From Escherichia coli (GTDB taxonomy: Bacteria > Pseudomonadota > Gammaproteobacteria > Enterobacterales > Enterobacteriaceae), in the NCBI RefSeq assembly GCF_001677475.2, contig NZ_CP015229.1: a stretch of DNA of 64,000 nucleotides; one strand, 5' to 3'. Below are positions 4,422-64,000 of the stretch, piece by piece; position 1 is the first letter of the stretch; each line of letters starts with the position of its first letter. Both the position numbers and the translations under genes were made by a program. The notes beneath the pieces are model-generated. The model made no database searches, was not told where the DNA came from, and saw only the letters and a program-made list of their open reading frames with translations.

Positions 4422-4494
4422 AAAAAGTTTCCTCTGTTTAGTGAGTGGATTCTGGCGGTGTTGCCGCACCGCCCCCTTTTCTGGAGGTACGATA

Positions 4495-5046
4495 ATGAAT
4501 CGCACATCCCTGATTAAATTAATTCATGTCGCCCGTCGTGATCTACAACTCGACGATGACACTTACCGCGCCTTTCTGGTGCAGTGCACAGGCAAGACCA
4601 GCTGCCGCGAGCTGTCCGTTGCACAACTGGAACGTGTGCTCGATGCCATGAAAGAGTGCGGTTTTAAAAAGCAGAAAAAACATCCCCGCCGTCGCTTTAA
4701 GGGGCATGTCACACCGCGCGAGAAGATTTATAAAATCTGGCAGCAGATGTTTCAGGATGGCTTTATCGCTGATGGCAGCGATGTCGCGCTGGACAAATAC
4801 GTTGCACGCCTGACGGCCAGACGTAATGGCGGTCAGGGGGTTTCCACGCTGGCCTGGTGTCACGGGGAATCGTTGCAGGTTGTGCTCGAAACGCTCAAGC
4901 AGTGGCACATGCGCTGCATCCGGGAAGCCTTTGCCCGACATGGTGTGCCGTTACCTGCAAGCCCATCCGGGCGGGAACTACGCGGATATGATGCACTGAC
5001 CAGTGCATATGCCCGCGCACGAAACAGCGGGAGAATTGCTGTATGA
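4495..5046 (+). CDS. gemA: GemA-like protein (Mu gp16 family)
   Basis: 183 aa; GGAGG RBS; position before mor. Confidence 0.75.
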   Translation: MNRTSLIKLIHVARRDLQLDDDTYRAFLVQCTGKTSCRELSVAQLERVLDAMKECGFKKQKKHPRRRFKGHVTPREKIYKIWQQMFQDGFIADGSDVALDKYVARLTARRNGGQGVSTLAWCHGESLQVVLETLKQWHMRCIREAFARHGVPLPASPSGRELRGYDALTSAYARARNSGRIAV

Positions 5047-5492
5047 AACAGATGAAAGAGCAGGATTTATTCGAAGACCTTCGGGACGACAGCGTTCTGG
5101 AATATCTTCATGATTACCAGGAAAACACCGCTTATCCGGCGTTACTTTCTGAACTGAACGCACTGCTGCGTAAAGAGCTGGCCCGGATTGGCGCAGACCC
5201 TGCTCATTCCCTTGAGCTGGTTGTGGCGATTTGTCGCCATATCGGCGGGATGCAGGTTTATGTTCCGAGGGGGAATATTCTGGAGAATCTTGTCCGGGAT
5301 ATGCGTATCTGGCGTGATTTTAACGGTCATAATATTCCTGAACTGGTTCAGCGTTACGGGGTGACGTATAAAACCGTCTACAAGGCCATCAAACGGATGC
5401 GACGTCTGGAGCGCAATAAATACCAGCCGGATTTGTTTTACCCCTCCCCGAACCTGCCTCACCCCGTTCGTCGTCCACCACGACGCCCTTAA
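5043..5492 (+). CDS. mor: Mor-like middle operon regulator
   Basis: 149 aa; ATG overlaps gemA stop; ...GGMQVYVPRG...YGVTYKTVYKAIKRMRRL resembles Mu Mor with longer C-terminus. Confidence 0.8.
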   Translation: MKQMKEQDLFEDLRDDSVLEYLHDYQENTAYPALLSELNALLRKELARIGADPAHSLELVVAICRHIGGMQVYVPRGNILENLVRDMRIWRDFNGHNIPELVQRYGVTYKTVYKAIKRMRRLERNKYQPDLFYPSPNLPHPVRRPPRRP

Positions 5493-5498
5493 TCAATG

Positions 5499-5522
5499 AA
5501 GCCGGTAAATCCGGCTTTTTTT
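5499..5522 (+). terminator. rho-independent terminator-like hairpin (AAGCCGG-TAAAT-CCGGCTT plus T7)
   Basis: 7-bp stem, 5-nt loop, run of 7 T; 7 nt after mor stop; identical copy at 13234-13257. Confidence 0.55.
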
Positions 5523-5577
5523 ATGCCTCCGGCACCATGAAGCAGACCACGTTTAAATCTGCTTCACAGGTGCTTTT

Positions 5578-6174
5578 ATGGAAAATCAAAAATTCTCCCC
5601 GGCCTTTGAACATGCGCTGAATTTCATTCTGCGTCCCGATATCGAAGGCGTCTATGCCAATGACCCCACTGACCGTGGCGGTGAAACCAAATACGGCATT
5701 TCTGACCGCCGCGACGGTGTGACTGACGGCAAAACCGATGTCAACGGCGACGGCAAACCGGATACCCGCATCAGGGATTTAACCCGCGAACAGGTTGCTC
5801 AGATTTACTGGCGCGATTACTGGCTGCCTGCCGGATGTGACCAGTGGCCTGATGGCGTGGCGATGTTTGTGTTCGATGCGGCGGTTCAGCATGGCGTTAA
5901 AAAAGCTATCAGGATTTTGCAGGAAGCCGCGGATGTGGATGCTGACGGCATCATCGGCCCCCGTACCCGTAAGGCCGTGAGCCTGTCCACCCCGGACTGG
6001 CTGCTGGCCCGCTGCATTGTCCGTCGTTCCCGCTTTTATGCCGACATCATCAAGTCCAAACCCGCCCAGGGCAAATACCTGAACGGCTGGTTTAACCGCA
6101 TGGAAAAGCTGACCGACGCCTGTCTGGAAATCATCGATACCCCTCCAGGCATCATGTCCGCCACGCGGGGGTGA
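5578..6174 (+). CDS. endolysin, GH108-like N-terminal domain plus peptidoglycan-binding domain
   Basis: 198 aa; motif EGVYANDPTDRGGETKYGIS typical of GH108 muramidases. Confidence 0.8.
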   Translation: MENQKFSPAFEHALNFILRPDIEGVYANDPTDRGGETKYGISDRRDGVTDGKTDVNGDGKPDTRIRDLTREQVAQIYWRDYWLPAGCDQWPDGVAMFVFDAAVQHGVKKAIRILQEAADVDADGIIGPRTRKAVSLSTPDWLLARCIVRRSRFYADIIKSKPAQGKYLNGWFNRMEKLTDACLEIIDTPPGIMSATRG

Positions 6175-6175
6175 T

Positions 6176-6427
6176 ATGGGCAAAGGCTGGGATGCCTCTC
6201 TGAAAGCCGGGCGGCGCGACCGCCTGCGTCAGGAGGTTCTGCACCGCATGGCCGGAGGTCCGCCCCCGAAACCGCTGGACTATACCGGCCATGACGGCAC
6301 ACACGCCAGCTACTACATGCGTGGCTGGAACTCCGTGGATACACGGGACATTTTCTGGCAGTGCCAGAAGTACAGGGAAAAATTCAATGTGGAAAAAGGT
6401 TATGAACAAAATTTTAAAACTGTGTGA
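6176..6427 (+). CDS. hypothetical protein in lysis region
   Basis: 83 aa; ATG 2 nt after endolysin stop. Confidence 0.45.
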   Translation: MGKGWDASLKAGRRDRLRQEVLHRMAGGPPPKPLDYTGHDGTHASYYMRGWNSVDTRDIFWQCQKYREKFNVEKGYEQNFKTV

Positions 6428-6812
6428 CTGGCTGATTTGTTCCCGACTGATGAGAACCCCATGGCCGCTGGCCGGACTGACGCTCTGTATGTTCATCATC
6501 AGCATGTTATGTGGCTGGCGATCGTTCGTGTTGATGTTGTTGTCCTTTGCCGGGGTGGTGTTGTTTTCATACAGCGCAAGCCTCGGGAATGTGCCATTTC
6601 GCCTGCTGCCTGAGGTCCGTTACCGGGCTTTTGGTCGCCACATCATCGTGTGGTCATGGGTGGTCTGGGCGCTGGGATATTTCTGCTGCGTCTTCAGCAC
6701 GCTGATGATGATGTCACCGGCACACCCGGTGTTCTGGCTGTGTGGTGGCGGTTGCGGCGCTCTGCTCTGTCTTCAGCGTTATCTGTATGGAGGTTTCCCG
6801 TGGATCCGTTAA
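6387..6812 (+). CDS. multi-pass membrane protein, possible holin-like
   Basis: 141 aa, several hydrophobic segments, Cys-rich; next to endolysin. Confidence 0.45.
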   Translation: MWKKVMNKILKLCDWLICSRLMRTPWPLAGLTLCMFIISMLCGWRSFVLMLLSFAGVVLFSYSASLGNVPFRLLPEVRYRAFGRHIIVWSWVVWALGYFCCVFSTLMMMSPAHPVFWLCGGGCGALLCLQRYLYGGFPWIR

Positions 6813-7408
6813 CCCTTTCAGGCATCGCCTCCGTTCTGCTGAAAGCCGGGCCGGGGCTGATTCGTTCCGTCGGGCGCTGGTTTGGTGGCGGTACATCTGC
6901 CGCCGCTGACTCGGTGGCCGGTATGGTGGAAAGCGTCCGGGAAAGCCTGCCGGTGGCTGAACAGCAGCGCGTTCTGGAACAGAAGATGGCGATGTTACCA
7001 CCGGAACAACAGATACAACTGGAAACCCTGAAAATTCAGCTGCAACAACTGGAGGTGGAGCGGCAGAAGCTGGTGCTGGCTGACCAGCAGGCCGCACACC
7101 ACGAACAGCAGGAAACCATCCGCAATGGTGACAACGCCACGGACAGCTATGTGCGCCAGACGCGCCCGCTGCTGGCCCGCCTTTCCTGTTACAGCGGTCT
7201 GGCCTATGTGCTGTTGCTCTCCTGCGGCCAGATTGCCGGAGCCGTTGCCGGTGCCAGAGGTATCACGCTGCATATGCCAACACCGGACTGGGATATCACG
7301 CTGATGTTGCTTACCCCTGCGCTGGGCTATCTCGGCGTGCGAACCCTTGACGGCTTTGCCCGTTACAGCAAATCAAGCCGTCACAAAATGTCTGCGGGGC
7401 TGAAATGA
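6800..7408 (+). CDS. coiled-coil membrane protein (lysis or morphogenesis associated)
   Basis: GTG 6800 after GGAGG RBS; coiled coil QQIQLETLKIQLQQLEVERQKL and C-terminal hydrophobic segments; start uncertain. Confidence 0.45.
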   Translation: MDPLTLSGIASVLLKAGPGLIRSVGRWFGGGTSAAADSVAGMVESVRESLPVAEQQRVLEQKMAMLPPEQQIQLETLKIQLQQLEVERQKLVLADQQAAHHEQQETIRNGDNATDSYVRQTRPLLARLSCYSGLAYVLLLSCGQIAGAVAGARGITLHMPTPDWDITLMLLTPALGYLGVRTLDGFARYSKSSRHKMSAGLK

Positions 7409-7632
7409 CCGATGAAATCGACCGCATCAGTGAAGTGGTTCTGAACGAGCGTCAGTGCGTCGTTAAAGCCTGGCAGACGCGGACAAAAGAAGCGCCCCAC
7501 AGTCGGGGCTTCTGCAATGACTGCGGGAACGTTATTCCGGCACAGCGCCTTGCGGCGCTGCCGGATGTGGTGACCTGTATTGACTGCCAGCAGATGCGTG
7601 AGCGCAGGAGGAAGACATGTCCTGGGAAGTGA
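7405..7632 (+). CDS. TraR/DksA-family C4 zinc-finger protein
   Basis: 75 aa; CNDCGN...(17 aa)...CIDCQ. Confidence 0.75.
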   Translation: MTDEIDRISEVVLNERQCVVKAWQTRTKEAPHSRGFCNDCGNVIPAQRLAALPDVVTCIDCQQMRERRRKTCPGK

Positions 7633-31838: not shown

Positions 31839-32244
<406 letters not shown>

Positions 32245-32356
32245 TTGTCATTTGTTACCGGTCAGTCTACACATTTCAGATGCTGCGTTAAAAAACCCAA
32301 GTACTTCAAGTAGCACATCGTCATCAACACCCAGCCCCAAGATACGGTGATAAAAT

Positions 32357-37068: not shown

Positions 37069-37914
37069 ATGCTGGCTAAAGTCACTTTCCTGAGCTGTAT
37101 AACGATGAGCGATTTTACTTTTTCTGGCTATGAATTGGCCTGCTTTGTAACACACTCCGGTCTATCCCGTAGCGCCGGGCATATCCTGTCGCAATGTGCA
37201 AATCTCGCGGCAACAACCAGTGAATACTTCATTCACAAGCCTCACCGCCTGATCGCGGCAGAAACTGGTTATAGCCAATCAACCGTCGTTCGTGCATTCC
37301 GTGAAGCTGTAAACAAAGGAATCCTGTCGGTAGAGATTGTTATCGGCGATCACCGTGAACGCCGCGCTAACCTGTACCGGTTTACACCATCCTTTTTAGC
37401 CTTTGCTCAACAAGCCAAAAATGCGCTAATTGAAAGCAAATTAAAGATCTCTTCAGCCGCAACCAAGGTTAAAGCTGTTCTCGCTAACACATTGGCTTTA
37501 TTTGATTTTTTATCCACACCCCCATGTCAAAATGATACCCCCTCCCCCTGTCAGGATGACGTGGCAATAAAGAATAAGAAGTCACAAATTAAAAAAACAA
37601 AAAGATCAGTTTCCGGCGGTACCGGAACGACCAGCCTCAAAAAACTGACTTCATGGATCGCTGAGGCAAAAGCAAAGGCTGACAATCTGCGGTTATCCAA
37701 AAAACGCGCTCAAAAACATGAGTTCAAGCAGAAAGTAGAGGCGGCAGCGCGGAAATATGCTTACCTGAAGAACAAGCGTTCTCCTGATATTGGCGGGATA
37801 TCAAACTTCGATAATCTGCCGCATTGCATGACGGTAAACGAAGCTCTTAATGAGGTTTTAGCCAAAAATAAAGATAACGAACAATGGGGTATACCGGCAG
37901 GATTCAGAGGTTAA
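37069..37914 (+). CDS. repL: RepL-like lytic replication initiator
   Basis: 281 aa; follows kilA; start uncertain (alternative ATG 37105). Confidence 0.65.
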   Translation: MLAKVTFLSCITMSDFTFSGYELACFVTHSGLSRSAGHILSQCANLAATTSEYFIHKPHRLIAAETGYSQSTVVRAFREAVNKGILSVEIVIGDHRERRANLYRFTPSFLAFAQQAKNALIESKLKISSAATKVKAVLANTLALFDFLSTPPCQNDTPSPCQDDVAIKNKKSQIKKTKRSVSGGTGTTSLKKLTSWIAEAKAKADNLRLSKKRAQKHEFKQKVEAAARKYAYLKNKRSPDIGGISNFDNLPHCMTVNEALNEVLAKNKDNEQWGIPAGFRG

Positions 37915-45137: not shown

Positions 45138-45189
45138 GGCACTTGTGTGAATCCCTTTTCGGAAGAGATTTTATTGAAAGTCACTTGTT

Positions 45190-45381: not shown

Positions 45382-46347
45382 TTATTCCCCAGCAGACATT
45401 TTCCCAATGATTTTTTTTATTGCTTCGTCAATTTCAGTTTGCACTTCAGACGGGAGTCTGGAGAACTCGTAGGCGACTACCCGTTTTTTCGGATCGGACT
45501 TCTTTCTGGCGTATTGACGACGGTCAGAGAAGTCTCGCAGCTTCTCAATCACCACAGATTTAACCGGCGCGGGCTTCAGGCTTTTGCTTTCCGCTTTGAA
45601 GATAGCCAGTATCTTCGATTTATCCTCTTTCGCGCCCTCAGTCTCTGCAATTCGTTCGCGCACCGTATCAACCAGCTCTTCAATCGGCACGCTTTTAGCG
45701 TTAGCATCCTCGGCGATCTGGAGCAGTAACTGGTAATCTGGCAGGGCGAGATCGCTGGCAACAGGGAAGACAGCAATCATCTCATCCGGCACCGCGGCAG
45801 CCTGGAAAGCTCGCGTCACTTTAGCCTTTGAGATGTTCTCAGCTCGGGCGATCTCTTCTTTGGTCATATTCTTACCGTACATAACCTCGAAGCGTTTACC
45901 CAGCTCGCGCAGAGTGTGTTCGCGGGCTGTCTGGATATCAATGGCCAGCTGGCGGGCATCTGCCAGGCTGATCTCATCTTTCGTCACCAGAATCTCAAAT
46001 TTCGTTTCATTGAAGATACACGCAGCGCGGCGACGTGATCCGTCCAATACCTCAATGCGCTCCCCAACCATACGACCGATAGCCGGGAAGAACTGTTGCA
46101 ATTTAATGGTGCGGGAAATATCGCTTACCGACTCAGGGGTGAGCAGAGACTGATCGCGGCCGTTAACTGCCGGGTCAACGAACGTGCGCGACTCAATCTC
46201 ACCACTCAGCACAACGGTAAGCAAAAATTTAGCCTGGCGGCCAGATTTTAGGGTAAAGGTTTTGGTGCCTTCACTGCCTTCAAGCATGCGAGCAAACTCG
46301 GAGCTATTCTTGCCCAGCACTCGTCCACGGGAAACTATTTTTTTCAT
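45382..46347 (-). CDS. parB: partition protein ParB
   Basis: 321 aa; ParB/Spo0J-like; overlaps parA stop. Confidence 0.8.
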   Translation of the reverse strand: MKKIVSRGRVLGKNSSEFARMLEGSEGTKTFTLKSGRQAKFLLTVVLSGEIESRTFVDPAVNGRDQSLLTPESVSDISRTIKLQQFFPAIGRMVGERIEVLDGSRRRAACIFNETKFEILVTKDEISLADARQLAIDIQTAREHTLRELGKRFEVMYGKNMTKEEIARAENISKAKVTRAFQAAAVPDEMIAVFPVASDLALPDYQLLLQIAEDANAKSVPIEELVDTVRERIAETEGAKEDKSKILAIFKAESKSLKPAPVKSVVIEKLRDFSDRRQYARKKSDPKKRVVAYEFSRLPSEVQTEIDEAIKKIIGKMSAGE

Positions 46348-47555
46348 GCCGCCTCACCCCTAACAAACTCAATTCGATCAAACACAGCCTTAGTGAAACG
46401 CTCGGCCTCGGTTCGTGCCTTCTTCAGCGCCTCTGCACTGCCTGGATACGATTGCGGGTTGGCACTGATTACGGTGTCGAAAGACTCGCCGCATCGCTCA
46501 AAGCCATCCAGACGAGGCAGAGAAGAGTCCAGAATGTTGCTGGCGTAAACCTCACGCGCAAGGCTGTGTGATGTCTCGTGATCGCGCTTGCCGGTCATCT
46601 TCGACATAAAACCAATGCTGGCGCTCAAACGCGGTTCTACGCCTTCCTCCTCCAGTTGCTCCAGCATTTCTGGCAGACGGGTGAGATATTTCAGTGTTGA
46701 GTGGAAGTCAACCTGGGCTGGTGGGGTAGGGGTAAGCAGCAAATCGCTGGCCGCCAGACCGTTGAGCAGGAACGGATCCAGGTGTGGACCGGTATCAATA
46801 AAGATAAAGTCATAATCATCCGCAACACGATCAATGATATTGCGTCGAAGGATTTCGTACTGATTTTGTCCGGGAAGATGCTCTTCAACCAGCTCTTTCC
46901 ATTGGCTGGCAACAAAGCCATCGTCGATAGAGGCTGGAATCACGTCTACGCCAGGAACGATGGTCGGACGAATCACCTCTTTGCGTAGCGTCTCCGCGTC
47001 CAGGTCGTTCAGCATCGCCTGCGCGGCGGTTTCCAGGATGGAACCAATACTGTGAGTATGGTCGAGGAACATTGTGCTGGATGCCTGAGGGTCAAGGTCA
47101 ATTACCAGAATGCGCAGATCGTGACGCAGTAAATCCTGATGCACACGCAGAGCGTGCGCCAACGTAACTGTGGAAACCGTTTTGGATACGCCACCCTTCA
47201 GGTTTACGACAAAAATAACGTAAGGCGATTTGTGAATGTCGCGATATTTGGGGATCTTACGGTGGGCATAGATATCAATGACGTTCTGGATGGTCAGCGC
47301 GTACTGTTCAACGTTACCGACCTGTTTCTTGTTGAACTGGTACCCATCATCTTCCATCTCTTTGATGGCCTGCTCCACAATGCGGCGGCTCAGCTTCGGC
47401 AACTTTGCCACAGCGTTACGAGTGAACGTCTGATAATACTCGGTCTGATTGAACTCTTTGCGCTGATCTTCAATATCCTGACTCATGGCCTTAAGTAATG
47501 CGCTTGCACGAAGAGCTATGGTGCCAACACCGCCGTAATCGCGTTTCATCATCAT
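46344..47555 (-). CDS. parA: partition ATPase ParA (type Ia, N-terminal extension)
   Basis: 403 aa; deviant Walker A NLKGGVSKT; architecture as P1 ParA but sequence divergent. Confidence 0.85.
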   Translation of the reverse strand: MMMKRDYGGVGTIALRASALLKAMSQDIEDQRKEFNQTEYYQTFTRNAVAKLPKLSRRIVEQAIKEMEDDGYQFNKKQVGNVEQYALTIQNVIDIYAHRKIPKYRDIHKSPYVIFVVNLKGGVSKTVSTVTLAHALRVHQDLLRHDLRILVIDLDPQASSTMFLDHTHSIGSILETAAQAMLNDLDAETLRKEVIRPTIVPGVDVIPASIDDGFVASQWKELVEEHLPGQNQYEILRRNIIDRVADDYDFIFIDTGPHLDPFLLNGLAASDLLLTPTPPAQVDFHSTLKYLTRLPEMLEQLEEEGVEPRLSASIGFMSKMTGKRDHETSHSLAREVYASNILDSSLPRLDGFERCGESFDTVISANPQSYPGSAEALKKARTEAERFTKAVFDRIEFVRGEAA

Positions 47556-47659: not shown

Positions 47660-47952
47660 TATTAGATGTGTGCTGGAGGGATGATGCAGGACCAGAATGT
47701 GCGATAGAGGGAAGTCGCATTGAATTATGTGCTGTGGAGGGATCGCTGGTATCAAATATGTGTGCTGGAGGGAAAGGCAGAGAATTACATGTGCACTGGA
47801 GGGAAAAACGGATGGACAGATGTGTGCTGGAGGGAAAGTCTGGGCAAACTGCGGGGCGTCCCCCTCCAGCGCACATCAAAAACAGGAAATTGGACAAGCC
47901 TTCCCGTCAGCACACATTTTTTTAATGCAGCTTCCCTCCAGCACACACTTAT
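47660..47952. repeat. incA-like iteron array downstream of repA
   Basis: About 8-9 copies of GATGTGTGCTGGAGGGAAA-type 19-mers in both orientations. Confidence 0.7.
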
Positions 47953-48809
47953 TCGGGAAGTTTCAGCTTTGGATTGCGAGAATGGACGATTACAAAACTT
48001 TCCCGGCCTTTCTTCTCAATTGAACAGTCGAGATAGCCGATTGTTTTAAGCTGTTCTATCGCTTTCTTAATGATACGGTTTTGCTCGCCAACAGCTGACT
48101 GCAAAGCCAAGCGCTCACGGATTCGCGCGAACGATAGGGGCAACGGGTTCTGCGGAAGGCTTTCGATGAAAGTGTAAATGGCTTGTGCAGCTTCTTTCTT
48201 CGGAAGGGCACGCAAGGCGTGGTGTTGCAACAGAACGCGATAATCAAGCTGGAACAGCTCCCACAGCTTCGAATCAGCCTCCAGCTCTATCAGATCAAGG
48301 TCAGCATCAAAACGCCCGACCTTCAGCAGACCAGTCTGATAGCCGCCTTTAGCATCTTTTCCGCGCTTAAAGGCGATACCCTTGTTACGCAAGCGACCAA
48401 GTGATTCATGAATGGTTAAACGCAGTTTCGCATCCAGACGTTTTGAGGGGAAACCACAGGCTTTAGCGAATTCCTGAAACGATAACTGGATGGTGTTTGA
48501 GGACAAGCCGTATTTGCTGAACGCGTAGATGACACCGATCCACGTTTTGAAATCAGTATCCATATCGAGTCGAGGACCAGTGATTTTAATATCATCGTAA
48601 CCCTCGGCTTTAGCTATCTCCAGCTGGGAAAACGCTTTGGTGGCATCAATCTCTTTACTTTCTCCTTTGCTCTTTGATGGCTTCGGCACGAATACCCCCA
48701 AGCGCATCAACGCTACAGGCTGCACAGTGTTGTTTGAATTAACTGTTAGTTCTTTTGCCTTACTTTCAATGTCTGCGTAAAGAATATCGGAGATAAATGA
48801 TTGATTCAT
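47949..48809 (-). CDS. repA: plasmid replication initiator RepA
   Basis: 286 aa; flanked by iteron arrays; matches P1 RepA as recalled. Confidence 0.85.
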   Translation of the reverse strand: MNQSFISDILYADIESKAKELTVNSNNTVQPVALMRLGVFVPKPSKSKGESKEIDATKAFSQLEIAKAEGYDDIKITGPRLDMDTDFKTWIGVIYAFSKYGLSSNTIQLSFQEFAKACGFPSKRLDAKLRLTIHESLGRLRNKGIAFKRGKDAKGGYQTGLLKVGRFDADLDLIELEADSKLWELFQLDYRVLLQHHALRALPKKEAAQAIYTFIESLPQNPLPLSFARIRERLALQSAVGEQNRIIKKAIEQLKTIGYLDCSIEKKGRESFVIVHSRNPKLKLPE

Positions 48810-49090: not shown

Positions 49091-49113
49091 AAAACCGGCC
49101 AACATAGCCGGTT
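49086..49113 (-). terminator. rho-independent terminator of minus-strand operon
   Basis: AACCGGC-CAACATA-GCCGGTT with T-run on minus strand. Confidence 0.45.
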
Positions 49114-49126
49114 GGAAGGAAGGGTA

Positions 49127-49519
49127 TTATTCTACGCTTTCGATAAGAAGACCATGTTCATAACATTTAAGCTCATCGCCTTCGTACAGGAATTGGTATC
49201 CAATACCACCATTTTCATGGACATTAGGGAATAACTCATAACTCACTGAAGAGCAAATCACACCAATGCAACGATCAACGCCTTCTCGTTCTTCAGTGCT
49301 GAAAAAATCCTCTTCGGTAAGAACATGAGTACATTGCTCATCAGCATAGGTCGGAAATACATGCTCGATGCAATCCGGGTGTTTTAAACCAAGCTGATCG
49401 GCAAGCTCGAAAGCATGACGGTATTGTTCAGATCCTGGCTTGCCAACAGTGATGTGCTCAATTTTGTAGATTGAAGTCGCTTTGTTGATAGTTTGCTTTA
49501 CTGTTACTTTATCAGACAT
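49127..49519 (-). CDS. hypothetical protein
   Basis: 130 aa ORF. Confidence 0.55.
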   Translation of the reverse strand: MSDKVTVKQTINKATSIYKIEHITVGKPGSEQYRHAFELADQLGLKHPDCIEHVFPTYADEQCTHVLTEEDFFSTEEREGVDRCIGVICSSVSYELFPNVHENGGIGYQFLYEGDELKCYEHGLLIESVE

Positions 49520-49530
49520 AAAAATCCCTT

Positions 49531-49782
49531 TTAGTTACCGCTGATAGCGCGGTTGTAATCATTAACGTTGCGATTCTTCCTGTTAATCCCCATCAGCATC
49601 GTTTCTGTATCGAGGATATACGCTGGCAGATCATCAAAATATTCACTGCTAAACTCTGGCATTCTGCACATAAATGCACTTTTGGGGGCAGGGTGGTTAA
49701 CCTTTGTCGGCGTCGGCGTTAAATTCGCTGATCGACTCCCGGAGCAACCGCTGAGTGTCAGCAGGAATGCGCTGGCGAACAT
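49531..49782 (-). CDS. putative lipoprotein
   Basis: ATG 49782; MFASAFLLTLSGC with lipobox LSGC. Confidence 0.5.
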   Translation of the reverse strand: MFASAFLLTLSGCSGSRSANLTPTPTKVNHPAPKSAFMCRMPEFSSEYFDDLPAYILDTETMLMGINRKNRNVNDYNRAISGN

Positions 49783-50119
49783 TACCCGCCGCAACCAGTT
49801 GTTTCTGAACTTCAGCTTTTCGTTCCATTTGCCTGTCAGCATATTTGGCTTGTTCTGATTCATTTTTCACTTCCTGGCTGTGAAAATGTTGCTCTGCTTT
49901 GTTCATCGTCTCAATGGTCTGGTTAAGATCCATTATTGACTTATCACGTTCCTTAACAGCCTGATCAAGACTGCCAATTTTCTCCATGGCTTGCTTTAGC
50001 TGATGACGTTCCCATGCAAACCCAGCACCAACAAGTGCGCAAATCAGAACAAGAACACCAGTAGCAGCAAGTTTCTCCTTCAAAGACAAAGCTGTTTTTA
50101 ACGTAGAAAAGAATGACAT
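49697..50119 (-). CDS. membrane-anchored coiled-coil protein
   Basis: ATG 50119 after AGGAGGA RBS; TM then helical region; overlaps lipoprotein gene out of frame. Confidence 0.55.
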   Translation of the reverse strand: MSFFSTLKTALSLKEKLAATGVLVLICALVGAGFAWERHQLKQAMEKIGSLDQAVKERDKSIMDLNQTIETMNKAEQHFHSQEVKNESEQAKYADRQMERKAEVQKQLVAAGNVRQRIPADTQRLLRESISEFNADADKG

Positions 50120-50418
50120 GTCTTCCTCCTGAAGAAAAATTATCAATGAAGTCCTTTGTTACTGTGCCGCTTTGTTTAATTCATCAAGAACAGAATCAGG
50201 AACCAAAGCGGCGACTGCGCTGGCTGTGCTGGTCTTATTTGCTGATGCTTCCGCAAGCGCGGTACCAATAGCATGGCCATAAGCAGTTATGGCTATGCTG
50301 GCGCTTTCCTTCGCCCGTTCATACTGCTGTTGCAATGCAACAGTGGGCGCTGTTGTTTGGTTGAAAACTCCCCCAAACTGTTCAGTTGCTACTTTCAGAG
50401 CTTCAATTTGCTTTTCTG

Positions 50419-50946
50419 TTAGTGCTGGTGGGGGAATGGCAGTGCCGCCGCCTGAACCAGTGCCTGACGAGCTTTCAGAGCCAGTGTTAAGGGTCTGGTT
50501 AATCTCCCCATAGCAGCGACTAAACTTGATGTATTAAGCGCGTTTACAGCGTCCTCAAGCGATTTAGTAATAGTCACATCACCAATGGCAATAGAGATTG
50601 GCAGTTCTGAAACTTCTCGCTCATTAGCACGGCAGTAAACATCCCAACCAATATCGAGTTGAAGCAGCATTGACAGATCTGCATAACCAGCCAACAGGTC
50701 CGCGTGCTTAGTTGCCAGTTCTCCAATGTTCGTTAAGCCGGTTGTGGTTGTTCTGATCGTTGAAACATAGCTGGTAATAGTGTCAGGATAGACAATTGTA
50801 TCCAAAATTAATCCGGTCAATTCTTCTGCAAGCTGTTTTGCCGTGTTAGCACTGCTTCGTGCCGATGTTATGGCACCTGGTGTTTTCATCCCACCGGCTG
50901 CGGCCAATTTTTTATATGCGGATAATTGGTAGTCTTTTTCCAGCAT
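50419..50946 (-). CDS. hypothetical protein, possibly frameshifted with downstream open frame to 50159
   Basis: 175 aa ORF; the -1 frame stays open about 124 further codons with no start codon. Confidence 0.45.
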   Translation of the reverse strand: MLEKDYQLSAYKKLAAAGGMKTPGAITSARSSANTAKQLAEELTGLILDTIVYPDTITSYVSTIRTTTTGLTNIGELATKHADLLAGYADLSMLLQLDIGWDVYCRANEREVSELPISIAIGDVTITKSLEDAVNALNTSSLVAAMGRLTRPLTLALKARQALVQAAALPFPHQH

Positions 50947-50954
50947 GATATCTC

Positions 50955-51239
50955 CTAACTTACCTGAACCAGGCCGTCACCTGACGCTACGGTAGAGCCG
51001 CATGAAACAGGGTCACCAACGCATACGATCCCTTTACCATTGACGGTAAACCATGCCCTGGTTGATATAGCTTGCCCACCGTGCGTACTGTTTCCATCGG
51101 TATGCTGTGCATATTGCTTACCATCAACTAACACTTCGACTCCGTTGACTTTAAGTAGTGGTTCACTCTCTACAGGAGGCCTGGATGGGAATCCTCCGTG
51201 CCCCGAACAAATGCTGTCTTTTGTTGCAATACTTGCCAC
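50955..51239 (-). CDS. PAAR-like small protein
   Basis: 94 aa; Gly/His/Cys-rich with ...VCVGDPVSCGSTVASGDGLVQV resembling PAAR repeats. Confidence 0.6.
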   Translation of the reverse strand: MASIATKDSICSGHGGFPSRPPVESEPLLKVNGVEVLVDGKQYAQHTDGNSTHGGQAISTRAWFTVNGKGIVCVGDPVSCGSTVASGDGLVQVS

Positions 51240-51319
51240 GTAATCACCAATTATTTGCTCTGGTTTTCGTTATTTTAACCTATGTTACTTGTGGTCTACA
51301 TAGCGTTCACTATTGCATA

Positions 51320-51336
51320 ATTGCTCTAATGAATAT
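51320..51336. promoter_or_regulatory. C1 operator-like 17-mer in divergent promoter region
   Basis: ATTGCTCTAATGAATAT, 15/17 to consensus. Confidence 0.45.
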
Positions 51337-51407
51337 TGTTTTTTATGTAGTATTTTCGGTACCATTCAGCCATCGCCCTTCAATGGGCATTTGTTTGGAG
51401 TCGTCAG

Positions 51408-51692
51408 ATGCAGATGGAGCTAATAAGCCGCAAGGAGTTCGATAGCCGTGTAACCAGCGGTGAACTCGACAACTTGCAGGCTATCAAGGTGAAAGAAGGC
51501 TTTTGCCTCATTGGGAATCAGAGCGGAACAAATCGCGTTTTTATGCTTCGCCGTACGGATTTGAAGCCATTTGTCTGGAAGAACGAAATTGGTCCCAGCT
51601 CATACGCTCAAACGAGGGGGTGCCACAACTTGGCCTTTTTCTACAAAGACGAGCTTTCTGTGGTTGATATTCAAGGGTTACAACATGTTTAA
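51408..51692 (+). CDS. hypothetical protein
   Basis: 94 aa ORF upstream of RdgC-like gene. Confidence 0.45.
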
Positions 51693-52590
51693 GCACTGGA
51701 AAAACATTACTATTTATAAACTTTCTCGTGAGGCGGATCTGACCGACTTAGAAGATAAAAAGAAAATGATCCTTTTCACGCCATGCGGTAGTCAGGATAT
51801 GGCCAAGTTCGGTTTTGTATCGCCATTTGGTGATAATTCCGAAGTTATCGCTATGCATGGAAATGGTTTTATCCTTGTTGAAGCAAAGCGCGAAACAAAA
51901 ATTCTTCCCCCGCCGGTTATCCAGCGAGCTATTCAAGAAAAAATTGAAAAACTTGAGCAAGAACAAGCGCGTAAACTGAAGAAAACAGAGAAGGATTCCC
52001 TGAAAGACGAAGTTCTGCATTCTCTTCTGCCACGGGCTTTTTCAAAGTTTTCTGTTATCCAGGCGATCTACGATGGTTCAACTAAACGTATCTATATCAA
52101 TGCCAGCGCGCGGCAGGCAGAGGATATGCTCGCACTTATGCGTAAGTCTCTGGGTTCTCTTCCTGTTGTTCCCCTAAGTGTTGAAAATCCCATTGAATTA
52201 ACGCTGACCGACTGGGTACGTGATGGTAGTGCTCCACAGGGATTTCAAATGGGGGATGCGGCAGAACTTAAGGCAGTGCTTGAGGATGGCGGTATTGCCC
52301 GAGTGAAAAAGCAGGATTTGGGAAGCGATGAAATTTCCACACACCTGGAAGCTGGCAAGCTCGTCACTAAGTTGGCACTCGACTGGCAGAACCGCATTAA
52401 ATTTACACTGGACCATAACTTCAGCCTTACCAGCGTCAAATTTGCGGATGAATTGCTTGAGCAGAACTCTGATATTGATAGTGAAGATGTTGCGCAGCGA
52501 CTGGACGCAGATTTCTTCCTGTTGACCAGTGAAATTTCGTGCCTGGTTGATGCTCTGGTAAATGCCCTTGGCGGAGAGGCTAAGCAGTGA
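51685..52590 (+). CDS. RdgC-like recombination-associated protein (hrdC position)
   Basis: 301 aa from ATG 51685; N-terminus [15 protein letters not shown] like RdgC MLWFKNLMVYRL. Confidence 0.7.
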
Positions 52591-55500
52591 AAGAGCTGTG
52601 CTATGGATCTGTTTGCAGTGGAATTGAAGCCGCGAGTATTGCCTGGGAACCGTTGGGTATGCGTCCGGCGTGGTTTGCTGAAATCGAGCCTTTTCCATCT
52701 GCCGTTCTTGCGCTCCGCTGGCCCCATGTCGCCAACCTTGGCGACATGACAAAACTTGCCAAAAAAGTCTTGGCTGGGGAAATCGAATCCCCTGACGTGC
52801 TCGTCGGGGGAACACCATGTTTTACCGCGGGGCATATGGTTCTTTGTAAAAATGGTTATAAACCAATAGAAGATGTTTGCCCTGGCGATTACGTAGTCAG
52901 TCATCTCGGGCGGTTACAACAAGTAAAAAGAGTTGGTTCAAAAATAGCTAATACGGGGTTACTTAATGCCGTTGGGCAGCCTTTAGGTATAAGAACAACC
53001 AATGACCATCCCTTCCTGGCTGTTCGGTGGAAAGCCCAAAACACCCGGAAAAATGGCACATATTTTAAGAGAGAGTTGTTGTCTGAACCGGAATGGCGAG
53101 CAGCATGTGATATGCCGGGATATCAATGGTGCGCTCTAACTAATTTCAATATTGCATCTCCAGATATTTGTTCTCGGTTCTTGTCTGAAGAACAGGCTAT
53201 GTATCTTGCGGGCGCTTATGTTGGCGATGGATATATTAGGAGATGGAGAGGTAAATCTAAGAAGGCGGTTGTTTTTGGCATAAATTGCCAGAAATTGAGA
53301 AAGTTTCATTGCCGCATACCAGAAAACATATTTTCCGTGGCAAGCGAAATCCGAGGGAGCATCAAAGTAACCTTGAATGATACGTGTTATGCCAATTGGC
53401 TTAATGAACATTTTGGCGAGTTAAGCCATGCTAAGCGTATCCCTGCATGGGTGATGTCGCATCCATTGCGTCATGTGTTTTTACAAGGCTATCTTGATAC
53501 TGATGGGACACCAAGTGGTAAAGCGGGATTTAGAATTAATAGTGTTAGTCCTGCGCTTGCTTGGGGCGTTGCGGGGTTGTCACAGACTTGTGGTTATGTT
53601 TCTTCGGTCAGCTTTATTGAAGTTGAGCCCAAAAAAGTGATCGAGGATCGCGTGGTAAATCAACGGAATTATTATCAGGTAACAATCTGCCCGCAGAAAT
53701 TGTCACGTAAATCAAGATTGGCTCATGGAATGCTTTTACGAACAGTCAAAGAGTTTAAATCGGTAGGCCTAGATACTGTATACAACATAGAAGTCGAAGG
53801 TGATCATTCCTATATCCTCAATGGTGCGGTGGTCCATAACTGTCAGGCATTCAGTATCGCGGGCTTACGTGGTGGGCTTGATGATGAACGCGGCGCGCTA
53901 ACTTTGAAGTATGTGGAGCTTGCAAATGCAATTGACGACAAACGGTCTGAGTCCTTCCTCAAACCGACAGTTATCGTCTGGGAAAATGTCCCAGGAGTCC
54001 TGTCATCGGCAGATAACGCCTTCGGATGTTTCCTTGCCGGATTGGCTGGAGAAGATGCGCCATTTGAACCAGGTGATCGACCTGAATCAGGAAAAAGTAA
54101 CGCGTTCTGGCGGTGGGATGGCAAAACCGGTTGCCATGCTCCAAAGTGGCCGCAGTGTGGTTGTATTTATGGACCGCAGCGAAAGGTGGCCTGGAGAATC
54201 CTTGATGCCCAATACTTCGGAGTGGCACAACGACGCCGACGCGTGTTTGTTGTCGCAAGTGCTCGAACAGACCTCGATCCCGCAACGGTACTTTTTGAGT
54301 TCGAAGGCGTGCGCCGGAATATTGCGCCGAGCCGAAAAAAGAAGGAAATCGCTTCCGCCATTATTGCAAATGGCGCTGCAATCAGTGGCGAAAGCCTAAA
54401 TCCATGCCTACACGCTGACATGCCACCCGGTATGAAATCGACGAAAGCCGTAAACGCTTTCAGGATGGCGGCATTTGGGGAATATATTGACGATGAAACC
54501 GCATCGACAGTAAAGGCAAGAGATTTTAAAGATGCCACTGACCTTGCCGTTTTTAGCAGCACAGGAGCAGGTTTTTGGTCAGAAGGGCATGGTACATTGC
54601 GGGCACGTGAGCAAGAAAGCCATGAGCATCTTGTTACATTGGCTTTTCCTGAGCGTATGAGCGGTACACAACATGCTGCAACTAAGAATACTTCACCATC
54701 TCTAATGGCTAAAAATCCAACAGCTGTTTGCTATGAAGTAAGAAACGCAGAAGTAGCTGTCCGCCGTCTTACCCCTGTCGAATGTGAAAGGCTGCAAGGT
54801 TTTCCTGATGGGCATACGTTGATCCCGACGGAAAAGCGTAAAAAAGTTAATTCAGATGAACTGGCATATCTTCGCAATCACTATCCAGATTTAAGCGAAG
54901 AAGAGGCCGCGATGCTTGCAGCTGACGGACCGCGTTACAAAGCGATCGGCAATAGTATGGCAATACCAGTAATGCGCTGGATTGGCGATCGGATTACTAA
55001 GGCCGTATGTCGGCAGAAAGAAGGAAGTGAAACAAAAGAGCGAAAAGTTAAACCAGCGGCAGAATTCGAACGGTCCATATTCAAATGGGCTGGTGGAAAA
55101 TTTGGTGTTCTGGAACAAATCTTTCGCTATTTGCCAGAAGGGAAGCGCCTGATTGAACCTTTCGTTGGTGGCGGAGCTGTCTTCATGAATGCCGGATACC
55201 AGGAAAATCTGCTAAATGATGTGAATGCTGACCTGATTAACTTTTACAAGACTCTGCAACGCGAGGCGCATTCACTTATCACTCTGGCACATCGTTTCTT
55301 CCAGGACTACAACACACAGGAAGGATACCTGGCAGTACGGAATGCGTTTAACAAACAAGTCTATGATGATTTACATCGCGCAGCGGCGTTTTTGTTCCTG
55401 AACCGACATTGTTTTAACGGATTGACGCGTTACAACCAGGCCGGTGAGTTCAATGTCGGTTACGGGAAGTATAAAACTCCGTATTTCCCATTACAGGAGA

Positions 55501-55844
55501 TGGAAGCCTTCCTCGGTGCGGAAGGGCGGTCTGAGTTTGTATGCGGTGATTTTGCAGCGGTGATTGAAGCTGCCGGAGAAGGAGATGTCATCTTTTGCGA
55601 TCCGCCGTATGAACCGCTTCCAAATACAGAGGGATTCACGAACTATTCCGGTCATGACTTTAAGTTTGAAGAGCAAAAACGCCTGGTGTCTCTGTTGACG
55701 GATGCTCATCGTCGAGGTGCAAAGGTTCTCATTACTAACAGTGGCGCGCCAAACATCAGAGAGCTTTATCATGACAGTGGCTTCAGAGTGGAACCTCTTT
55801 TTGCCAGACGTTCTGTGTCTTGTAAGGGGACACTCGAGGTGTAG
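52587..55844 (+). CDS. bifunctional DNA methyltransferase: C5-cytosine domain (interrupted by intein) fused to Dam-like N6-adenine domain
   Basis: 1085 aa; C5 motifs GGTP/CQAFS, ENV, QRRRR, RLQGFP, GNS; Dam motifs [10 protein letters not shown] and DPPY. Confidence 0.8.
52818..53840 (+). other. intein with LAGLIDADG homing-endonuclease domain inside the methyltransferase
   Basis: 341 aa from CFTAGHMV to GAVVHN followed by +1 Cys; TTNDH block; [11 protein letters not shown] and [11 protein letters not shown]. Confidence 0.7.

Positions 55845-61095: not shown

Positions 61096-64000
<2,905 letters not shown>

Follow-up and report, generated by a model that had tools for sequence, protein, structure and literature searches.

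UpfC of a P1-like phage-plasmid: a PAAR-repeat protein that very probably forms the tip of the gp5 tail spike

The short open reading frame between positions 50955 and 51239 of the 64,000-nucleotide stretch of DNA analyzed here, referred to as the window throughout, is almost certainly upfC of a P1-like phage-plasmid, and its product a PAAR-repeat tip that caps the gp5 tail spike. The role of UpfC as the spike tip of P1 is already known and upfC itself holds nothing new in this element. An identity of 31% to T4 ORF5.4 was already recorded in the 2004 GenBank annotation of P1, the link to T4 gp5.4 was predicted with HHpred in 2022 (PMC9024508), and the protein was visualized in 2025-2026 (PDB 9VYI, 9VZK). 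UpfC is the single BLAST-detectable match between the tail proteins of T4 and P1 (T4 spike-tip preprint, PMC12407873). The initial annotation had delimited the reading frame of the 94-residue product exactly, and the start region is laid out as follows:

50955..51239, minus strand: upfC, 94-aa PAAR-repeat spike-tip protein, GTG start at 51239..51237, TAG stop at 50957..50955
51244..51248, minus strand: Shine-Dalgarno-like GGTGA, read from the sequence, 4 nt 5' of the upfC GTG

The same GGTGA is present in P1 AF234172, P1 OP279344 and pLH50-c-C when the sequences are compared.

The region 50000..52000 is 95-97% identical at the nucleotide level to P1, P7 and other Punavirus genomes and has 615 matches among plasmid records, most of which come from E. 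coli. These two sets of matches identify the window, at the level of sequence, as a P1-like phage-plasmid (Punavirus). It aligns collinearly with P1 in this region with 96% column identity, and the homologous reading frame in the P1 record AF234172 is upfC (64779..65063), which is labeled there as 'unknown protein function; 31 pct identical to phage T4 product of ORF5.4'. In a phmmer search, 93 of the 94 residues of the window protein were identical to chain A ('UpfC') of the cryo-EM structure of the P1 baseplate, PDB 9VYI. This identity together with the shared synteny places the protein in the orthologue group of P1 UpfC within Punavirus. Complete identity was found with the product of the upfC reading frame of P1 isolate OP279344. 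The gene is unannotated in that record and also absent from the PLSDB gene table of pLH50-c-C, a table that is incomplete by design.

When upfC is compared with the P1 gene, 15 nucleotide differences over 285 nt fall into 14 codons, 13 of which are synonymous, while a single one is non-synonymous (S86 here, A86 in the reference). The gene is under purifying selection. A protein search with UpfC returned 71 homologues, nearly all of exactly 94 residues and many of them encoded on contigs of 80-120 kb, in Escherichia, Salmonella, Cronobacter, Enterobacter, Serratia, Xenorhabdus, Pantoea and Buttiauxella. Most of them carry a precomputed match to PF05488. The label 'alanine racemase' is attached to the homologues P0005, P0007, P0009, P0011, P0015, P0028, P0038 and P0042. 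Judged by sequence comparison, the near-identity to a structurally solved protein, the constant length of the homologues and the excess of synonymous differences together mark the reading frame as a real, constrained gene that did not arise by chance.

The PAAR-repeat-like segments pointed out in the initial annotation are borne out by profile and pairwise searches. The Pfam PAAR_motif profile matches UpfC with E=8.5e-6 and 26.4 bits, which is 0.6 short of the gathering score of 27, and PHROG 281 ('PAAR motif') matches with E=2e-30. Among proteins of known structure, phmmer retrieved the tip of Klebsiella phage KP1 (9f4b_BA, E=4.8e-10), T4 gp5.4 (5IV5, 4KU0; E about 1e-7, 8.6e-8) and VCA0105 (E=3.7e-4). 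UpfC is thereby matched to the PAAR family (PF05488 / cd14671) by profile and by individual members. An AlphaFold2 model based on an alignment of 26 sequences is all-beta, with a pLDDT of 96.8 and a pTM of 0.85. A Foldseek search of the PDB with this model yielded the P1 protein in 9VYI (baseplate cryo-EM, TM 0.96), the KP1 tip 9f4b_BA (TM 0.93), VCA0105 (TM 0.88), c1882 (TM 0.87), T4 gp5.4 (4ku0_D, TM 0.86) and phiKZ gp163.1 (TM 0.69), whereas the best non-PAAR match reached a TM of only 0.31. The model agrees with five solved PAAR tips (TM 0.86-0.96) in the cone-shaped all-beta fold of three intertwined hairpins, so that UpfC is predicted with high confidence to be a PAAR cone; the similarity to the PAAR fold, for which a Pfam search and structure prediction had been proposed as a check, turned out to be strong.

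The description of the protein as rich in glycine, histidine and cysteine was correct for glycine only. Glycine makes up 14.9% of the residues, followed by valine with 13.8% (the GTG start counted as valine) and serine with 11.7%, while there are just three histidines and three cysteines (3.2% each). These few residues nevertheless include the ones that matter for the predicted metal site. H14, H46, H53 and C80 are invariant in 26 aligned homologues down to 40% identity and, in the phmmer alignment, coincide with the histidines and the cysteine of T4 gp5.4, in which three histidines and one cysteine bind iron in a tetrahedral site that links the tips of the hairpins (PMC12407873). Exchange of H14 for alanine in T4 gp5.4 abolishes binding to gp5 (PMC12407873). 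At the level of residues, UpfC thus possesses the apical site of three histidines and one cysteine, although the site itself is a predicted one. In the structure that we propose, three beta-hairpins would wrap into a small cone whose apex would be held by a tetrahedral metal site formed by H14, H46, H53 and C80.

The window also encodes the spike on which such a cone would sit:

61096..61728, minus strand: gene 5, trimeric beta-helix spike/needle capped by UpfC, identified by phmmer to 9vzk_q 'Gp5', 210 aa
61721..62737, minus strand: gene 6, trimeric hub, upstream of gene 5, identified by position and P1 annotation, hub role according to PMC12810830

The initial annotation had predicted a spike at precisely the coordinates of gene 5, and a full-length match of the product to PDB 9VZK chain q ('Gp5'; E=1.6e-136) confirms this. 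An OB domain of the Pfam family Phage_base_V (22.9 bits) forms its N-terminus. Where the C-terminus of a spike contains an HxH motif, the spike possesses its own iron-bound apex and has been proposed to need no tip protein (PMC12407873); a search of the window gp5 for an HxH apex motif found none. By the rule quoted in that work, gp5 would be expected to be a blunt spike of the type that takes a separate tip, and a cognate blunt, trimeric beta-helical spike with a Phage_base_V N-terminus is accordingly encoded in the same element as UpfC. The distance between upfC and gene 5 is about 10 kb.

Cryo-EM of P1 places a UpfC monomer on trimeric gp5, together with a tripod of UpfB (PMC12810830; 10.1101/2025.07.21.665459), although in one of these two studies the spike is an AlphaFold2 multimer model that was put into the map unrefined (bioRxiv 10.1101/2025.07.21.665459). 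The tripod, described as novel, consists of three UpfB trimers anchored at the distal tip of the spike (PMC12810830). An experimental complex of UpfC and gp5 that consists of proteins 99-100% identical to those of the window is already available. The initial annotation had considered, besides some other role, that the protein might be the tip of the virion spike with its gene outside the baseplate cluster, and both the PAAR fold and the cryo-EM of the 99%-identical P1 protein bear this out. The separation from the baseplate cluster as such is correct as well, yet upfC does have a structural gene of related function beside it, since the product of the neighboring gene upfB is reported as the tripod at the spike tip. 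UpfC was missing from LC-MS/MS data of P1 virions, which the authors of that study ascribed to its presence as one copy per virion and to its small size (PMC9024508).

According to the mechanism that we propose, one UpfC monomer would cap the gp5 trimer at the flat C-terminal face of its beta-helix and give the central tail spike a sharp tip, with the three UpfB trimers reported for P1 arranged around it. Upon contraction of the sheath, this tip would be the first part driven through the outer membrane. Deletion of upfC in P1 left plaquing unchanged (PMC9024508), and the gene was scored as non-essential after CRISPRi knock-down, again with unchanged plating (PMC10695390). In the laboratory T4 does not need gp5.4 either, but phages that have it compete much better, and on hldD hosts it is indispensable (PMC12407873). 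By analogy with gp5.4, the UpfC tip would make envelope penetration and DNA delivery more efficient rather than serve assembly, and it may be needed on certain hosts alone, such as those with defective LPS.

The genes around upfC are arranged as follows:

46344..47555: parA, left of the upfC block, followed by the incA iterons
47949..48809: repA, with oriR next to it; repA, oriR and parA lie 2-4 kb to the left of upfC
49093..49113, minus strand: terminator-like stem-loop, 9-bp stem with 5 GC pairs, then TTTTCACTTAT
49127..49519, minus strand: upfA, last gene of the block (PHROG 1453, E=2.4e-61, and P1 annotation)
49531..49863, minus strand: mlp, membrane lipoprotein precursor in P1, Rz1-like partner (PHROG 30284, E=2.2e-77)
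49697..50146, minus strand: ppfA, Rz-like, inner-membrane spanin (PHROG 89, E=1.5e-25, and P1 annotation)
50159..50335, minus strand: C-terminal 58 codons of upfB in another frame, rejoined to the rest of the gene when the missing G is added
50419..50946, minus strand: upfB, 'tripod' protein reported at the spike tip, 175 aa here (P1 alignment; PHROG 1559, E=5.9e-79)
51320..51336, plus strand: C1 repressor operator ATTGCTCTAATGAATAT between upfC and uhr, homologous to the annotated Odmt and equivalent to P1 Odmt/Op68

The closeness of upfC to repA and par had been recognized from the start. It is the normal position of the gene in P1. However, upfC stands outside the plasmid-maintenance module and heads a leftward block of its own, upfC-upfB-ppfA/mlp-upfA, that merely abuts oriR and repA. 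Within this block mlp and the 3' part of ppfA share sequence read in different frames. A scan for hairpins placed the terminator-like stem-loop with its T run 3' of upfA, where it ends the block before oriR. To the right of upfC follow the divergent genes uhr-hrdC-dmt with a C1-controlled promoter (P1 annotation), and the operator Odmt/Op68 is annotated in P1 as controlling the rightward Pdmt and not upfC. The upfB ATG lies 8 nt after the upfC stop codon and its AGGAG overlaps this stop codon, an arrangement which suggests that upfC and upfB are translated together. As a side aspect, the block headed by upfC joins envelope functions for entry (tip, tripod) with those for exit (spanin) beside oriR.

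In the window upfB is interrupted by a frameshift. A run of four G residues (50505..50508) replaces the five found in relatives, and this 1-nt deletion leads to a product of 175 residues; translation after restoration of the missing G yields 262 residues. In pLH50-c-C and P1 OP279344 the run consists of five G and upfB is intact at 262 residues. None of the best 25 of the 615 plasmid matches exceeds 96.5% identity, and in these the aligned stretch surpasses the query in length by 1-2 nt. The sequence does not distinguish a homopolymer sequencing error from real slippage. Should the frameshift be real, particles would carry the PAAR tip and lack a complete tripod, and the element would be a natural variant bearing on the share of the tripod in penetration or host range.

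Expression of upfC was approached with a position weight matrix derived from the 11 annotated late promoters of P1, which follow the pattern AAGTNACTT-N4-TANNNT, and with a consensus scan for sigma-70 promoters. Two overlapping candidates emerged upstream of upfC:

51272..51290, minus strand: candidate P1 late-promoter-like site, AAGTAACAT (-22 box), AGGT, TAAAAT (-10), 32 nt upstream of the GTG
51250..51278, minus strand: sigma-70-like match TTAAAA-17-AATAAT, 9/12 in the consensus scan, overlapping the candidate late promoter

The late-promoter-like site ranks fourth among about 128,000 positions in the 64-kb window. Its score of 12.6 equals that of the weakest real late promoter (LPpmgL, 12.64), the other ten scoring 17.6-23, and was reached by 79 of 5000 shuffles (1.6%) of the intergenic region. 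The homologous site in the P1 reference scores lower, with 8.6 or, when a slightly different matrix is applied, 6.9. The -10 element and the spacing are kept in P1 AF234172, P1 OP279344 and pLH50-c-C, while the -22 box is degenerate there; it reads AAATAATCT in the P1 reference, and the version present in the window is nearer to the late-promoter consensus. No comparable late-promoter site was detected in the diverged relative L007, an 87-kb metagenome scaffold that is described below, and the P1 annotation contains no promoter for upfC. The site at 51272..51290 is therefore best treated as a weak and unproven lead. Sigma-70-like sites are not more numerous in the region upstream of upfC than in shuffled versions of it. 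A literature search on expression of upfB and upfC found no transcript data, most matches being unrelated acronyms. Only three sites in the window score above 14 with the late-promoter matrix (45186..45168, which is identical to P1 LP23, 37087..37069 and 32253..32235). A window collinear with P1 should contain more late-promoter sites, so its left part may deviate from P1 in the genes or the promoter sequences present there.

A PAAR protein in an element that persists as a plasmid could also act in the lysogen, either by capping a VgrG of the host in the manner of type VI secretion systems or by altering the envelope as a 'moron'. In line with such a role, PHROG 281 belongs to the category 'moron, auxiliary metabolic gene and host takeover', some UpfC homologues bear the JGI name 'Zn-binding protein involved in type VI secretion', the T6SS proteins VCA0105 and c1882 match the fold with TM values of about 0.88, and upfC adjoins repA and par with no strong late promoter found. 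On the other hand, UpfC scores only 36.3 bits with the NCBIfam model T6SS_PAAR_dom (NF033420), for which the cut-off is 124. Between 47000 and 55000 and between 58000 and 64000 the window showed no T6SS genes, and the neighbors of upfC are phage and plasmid genes rather than a T6SS context. In sequence the protein is nearest to phage tips, as T4 gp5.4 and KP1 are matched with E values of 1e-7 to 5e-10 compared to 4e-4 for VCA0105. Moreover, the homologues reside on contigs of phage-plasmid size or in a tail cluster beside a spike gene, and a 99%-identical protein has been modelled on gp5 in the virion. With an NCBIfam score this far under the cut-off, the phage context and the placement by cryo-EM, the T6SS or moron role was rejected as highly improbable.

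It is hardly more credible that upfC is a dispensable, decaying remnant that contributes nothing to the phage. The unchanged plating of P1 after upfC deletion and CRISPRi and the frameshift in the neighboring upfB would fit decay, but a remnant should not differ from its P1 counterpart by 13 synonymous codons and only one non-synonymous codon, nor should its length be fixed at 94 residues and its metal ligands be invariant down to 40% identity. In addition, T4 gp5.4 illustrates how a tip that can be dispensed with in the laboratory may still confer a competitive advantage and be needed on hldD hosts (PMC12407873). The name 'alanine racemase', borne by several homologues of 94 residues, would make UpfC an enzyme. 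This idea can be dismissed, as 94 residues that form an all-beta PAAR cone matched no racemase family in Pfam or NCBIfam, and the name was rejected as an evidently propagated annotation error on the basis of the fold and family results. A PAAR-repeat tip on the gp5 spike thus stands as the preferred reading of UpfC.

Two relatives of this spike tip illustrate how the surroundings of the gene vary. In a P2-like tail cluster (L005), a 43%-identical homologue (P0067) is encoded between a gpV-like spike gene and gpW/gp25. In L007 (ENA metagenome scaffold, 87 kb; 4430..7546), which is P1-like, a 56%-identical UpfC homologue is directly followed by a UpfB homologue of 262 residues, and homologues of gp6 and gp5 are located about 5 kb from the upfC homologue. 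Directly upstream of upfC-upfB, L007 carries a partition module of the ParM/StbA and StbB type, not ParA/ParB, and farther upstream rdgC-dmt genes on the same strand. The upfC-upfB pair is kept while its neighbors change (ParA/RepA here, ParM/StbB in L007), and the maintenance module adjoining the upfC block appears to be exchangeable. One may speculate that upfC and upfB form a portable 'envelope-penetration' pair which, like T4 gp5.4, is essential only on particular hosts, e.g. those with truncated LPS, but we regard this proposal as rather unlikely.

A further observation concerns a gene of the divergent group to the right of upfC:

52587..55844, plus strand: dmt, bifunctional methyltransferase, 1085 aa compared to 754 aa in P1

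Residues about 77-418 of the Dmt protein match Hint_2, LAGLIDADG_3 and Intein_splicing. The insert starts with a cysteine after GGTP and ends with HN before CQAFS (GGTP-C...HN-CQAFS). These matches and boundaries mark the insert as an intein that contains a homing-endonuclease domain and interrupts the catalytic PCQ motif in the C5-cytosine methylase half of Dmt.

The value of the present assignment lies in annotation. With its GTG start and a product of 94 residues, upfC is often unannotated in P1-like plasmids or mislabelled as 'alanine racemase' or 'moron', and naming it as the spike tip corrects the annotation of these plasmids.

The closest known system is P1 itself. P1 UpfC (GenBank AAQ14038; 9VYI chain A) is the product of the same gene, with the same GTG start and length, and the synteny upfA-mlp-ppfA-upfB-upfC / uhr-hrdC-dmt is as in the window. 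The window deviates from the reference in the one conservative substitution and the 15 nucleotide differences, nearly all synonymous, in a -22-like box that is nearer to the consensus, and in the frameshifted upfB. T4 gp5.4 (4KU0, 5IV5) resembles UpfC in size (97 residues), in its cone fold and in its site of three histidines and one cysteine; like UpfC it is a monomer capping a trimeric gp5 beta-helix and is non-essential for plaques. The two proteins share about 28-31% identity. The T4 gene 5.4 adjoins gene 5, whereas upfC and gene 5 are about 10 kb apart. Furthermore, P1 gp5 is devoid of the lysozyme domain present in T4 gp5, and P1, unlike T4, adds the UpfB tripod around the tip (PMC12810830). 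The T6SS PAAR proteins VCA0105 (4JIV) and c1882 (4JIW) share the fold (TM 0.87-0.88) and likewise sharpen a beta-helical spike of the VgrG or gp5 type, but they are only 14-22% identical to UpfC, which is without an effector extension and belongs to a phage virion. The PAAR protein of the P2-like tail cluster (P0067 in L005) also has 94 residues, is 43% identical and shares the conserved residues. Genes of this P2-like type occupy the usual, expected position between a gpV-like spike gene and gpW/gp25, whereas in P1-like elements the tip gene has been relocated along with upfB.
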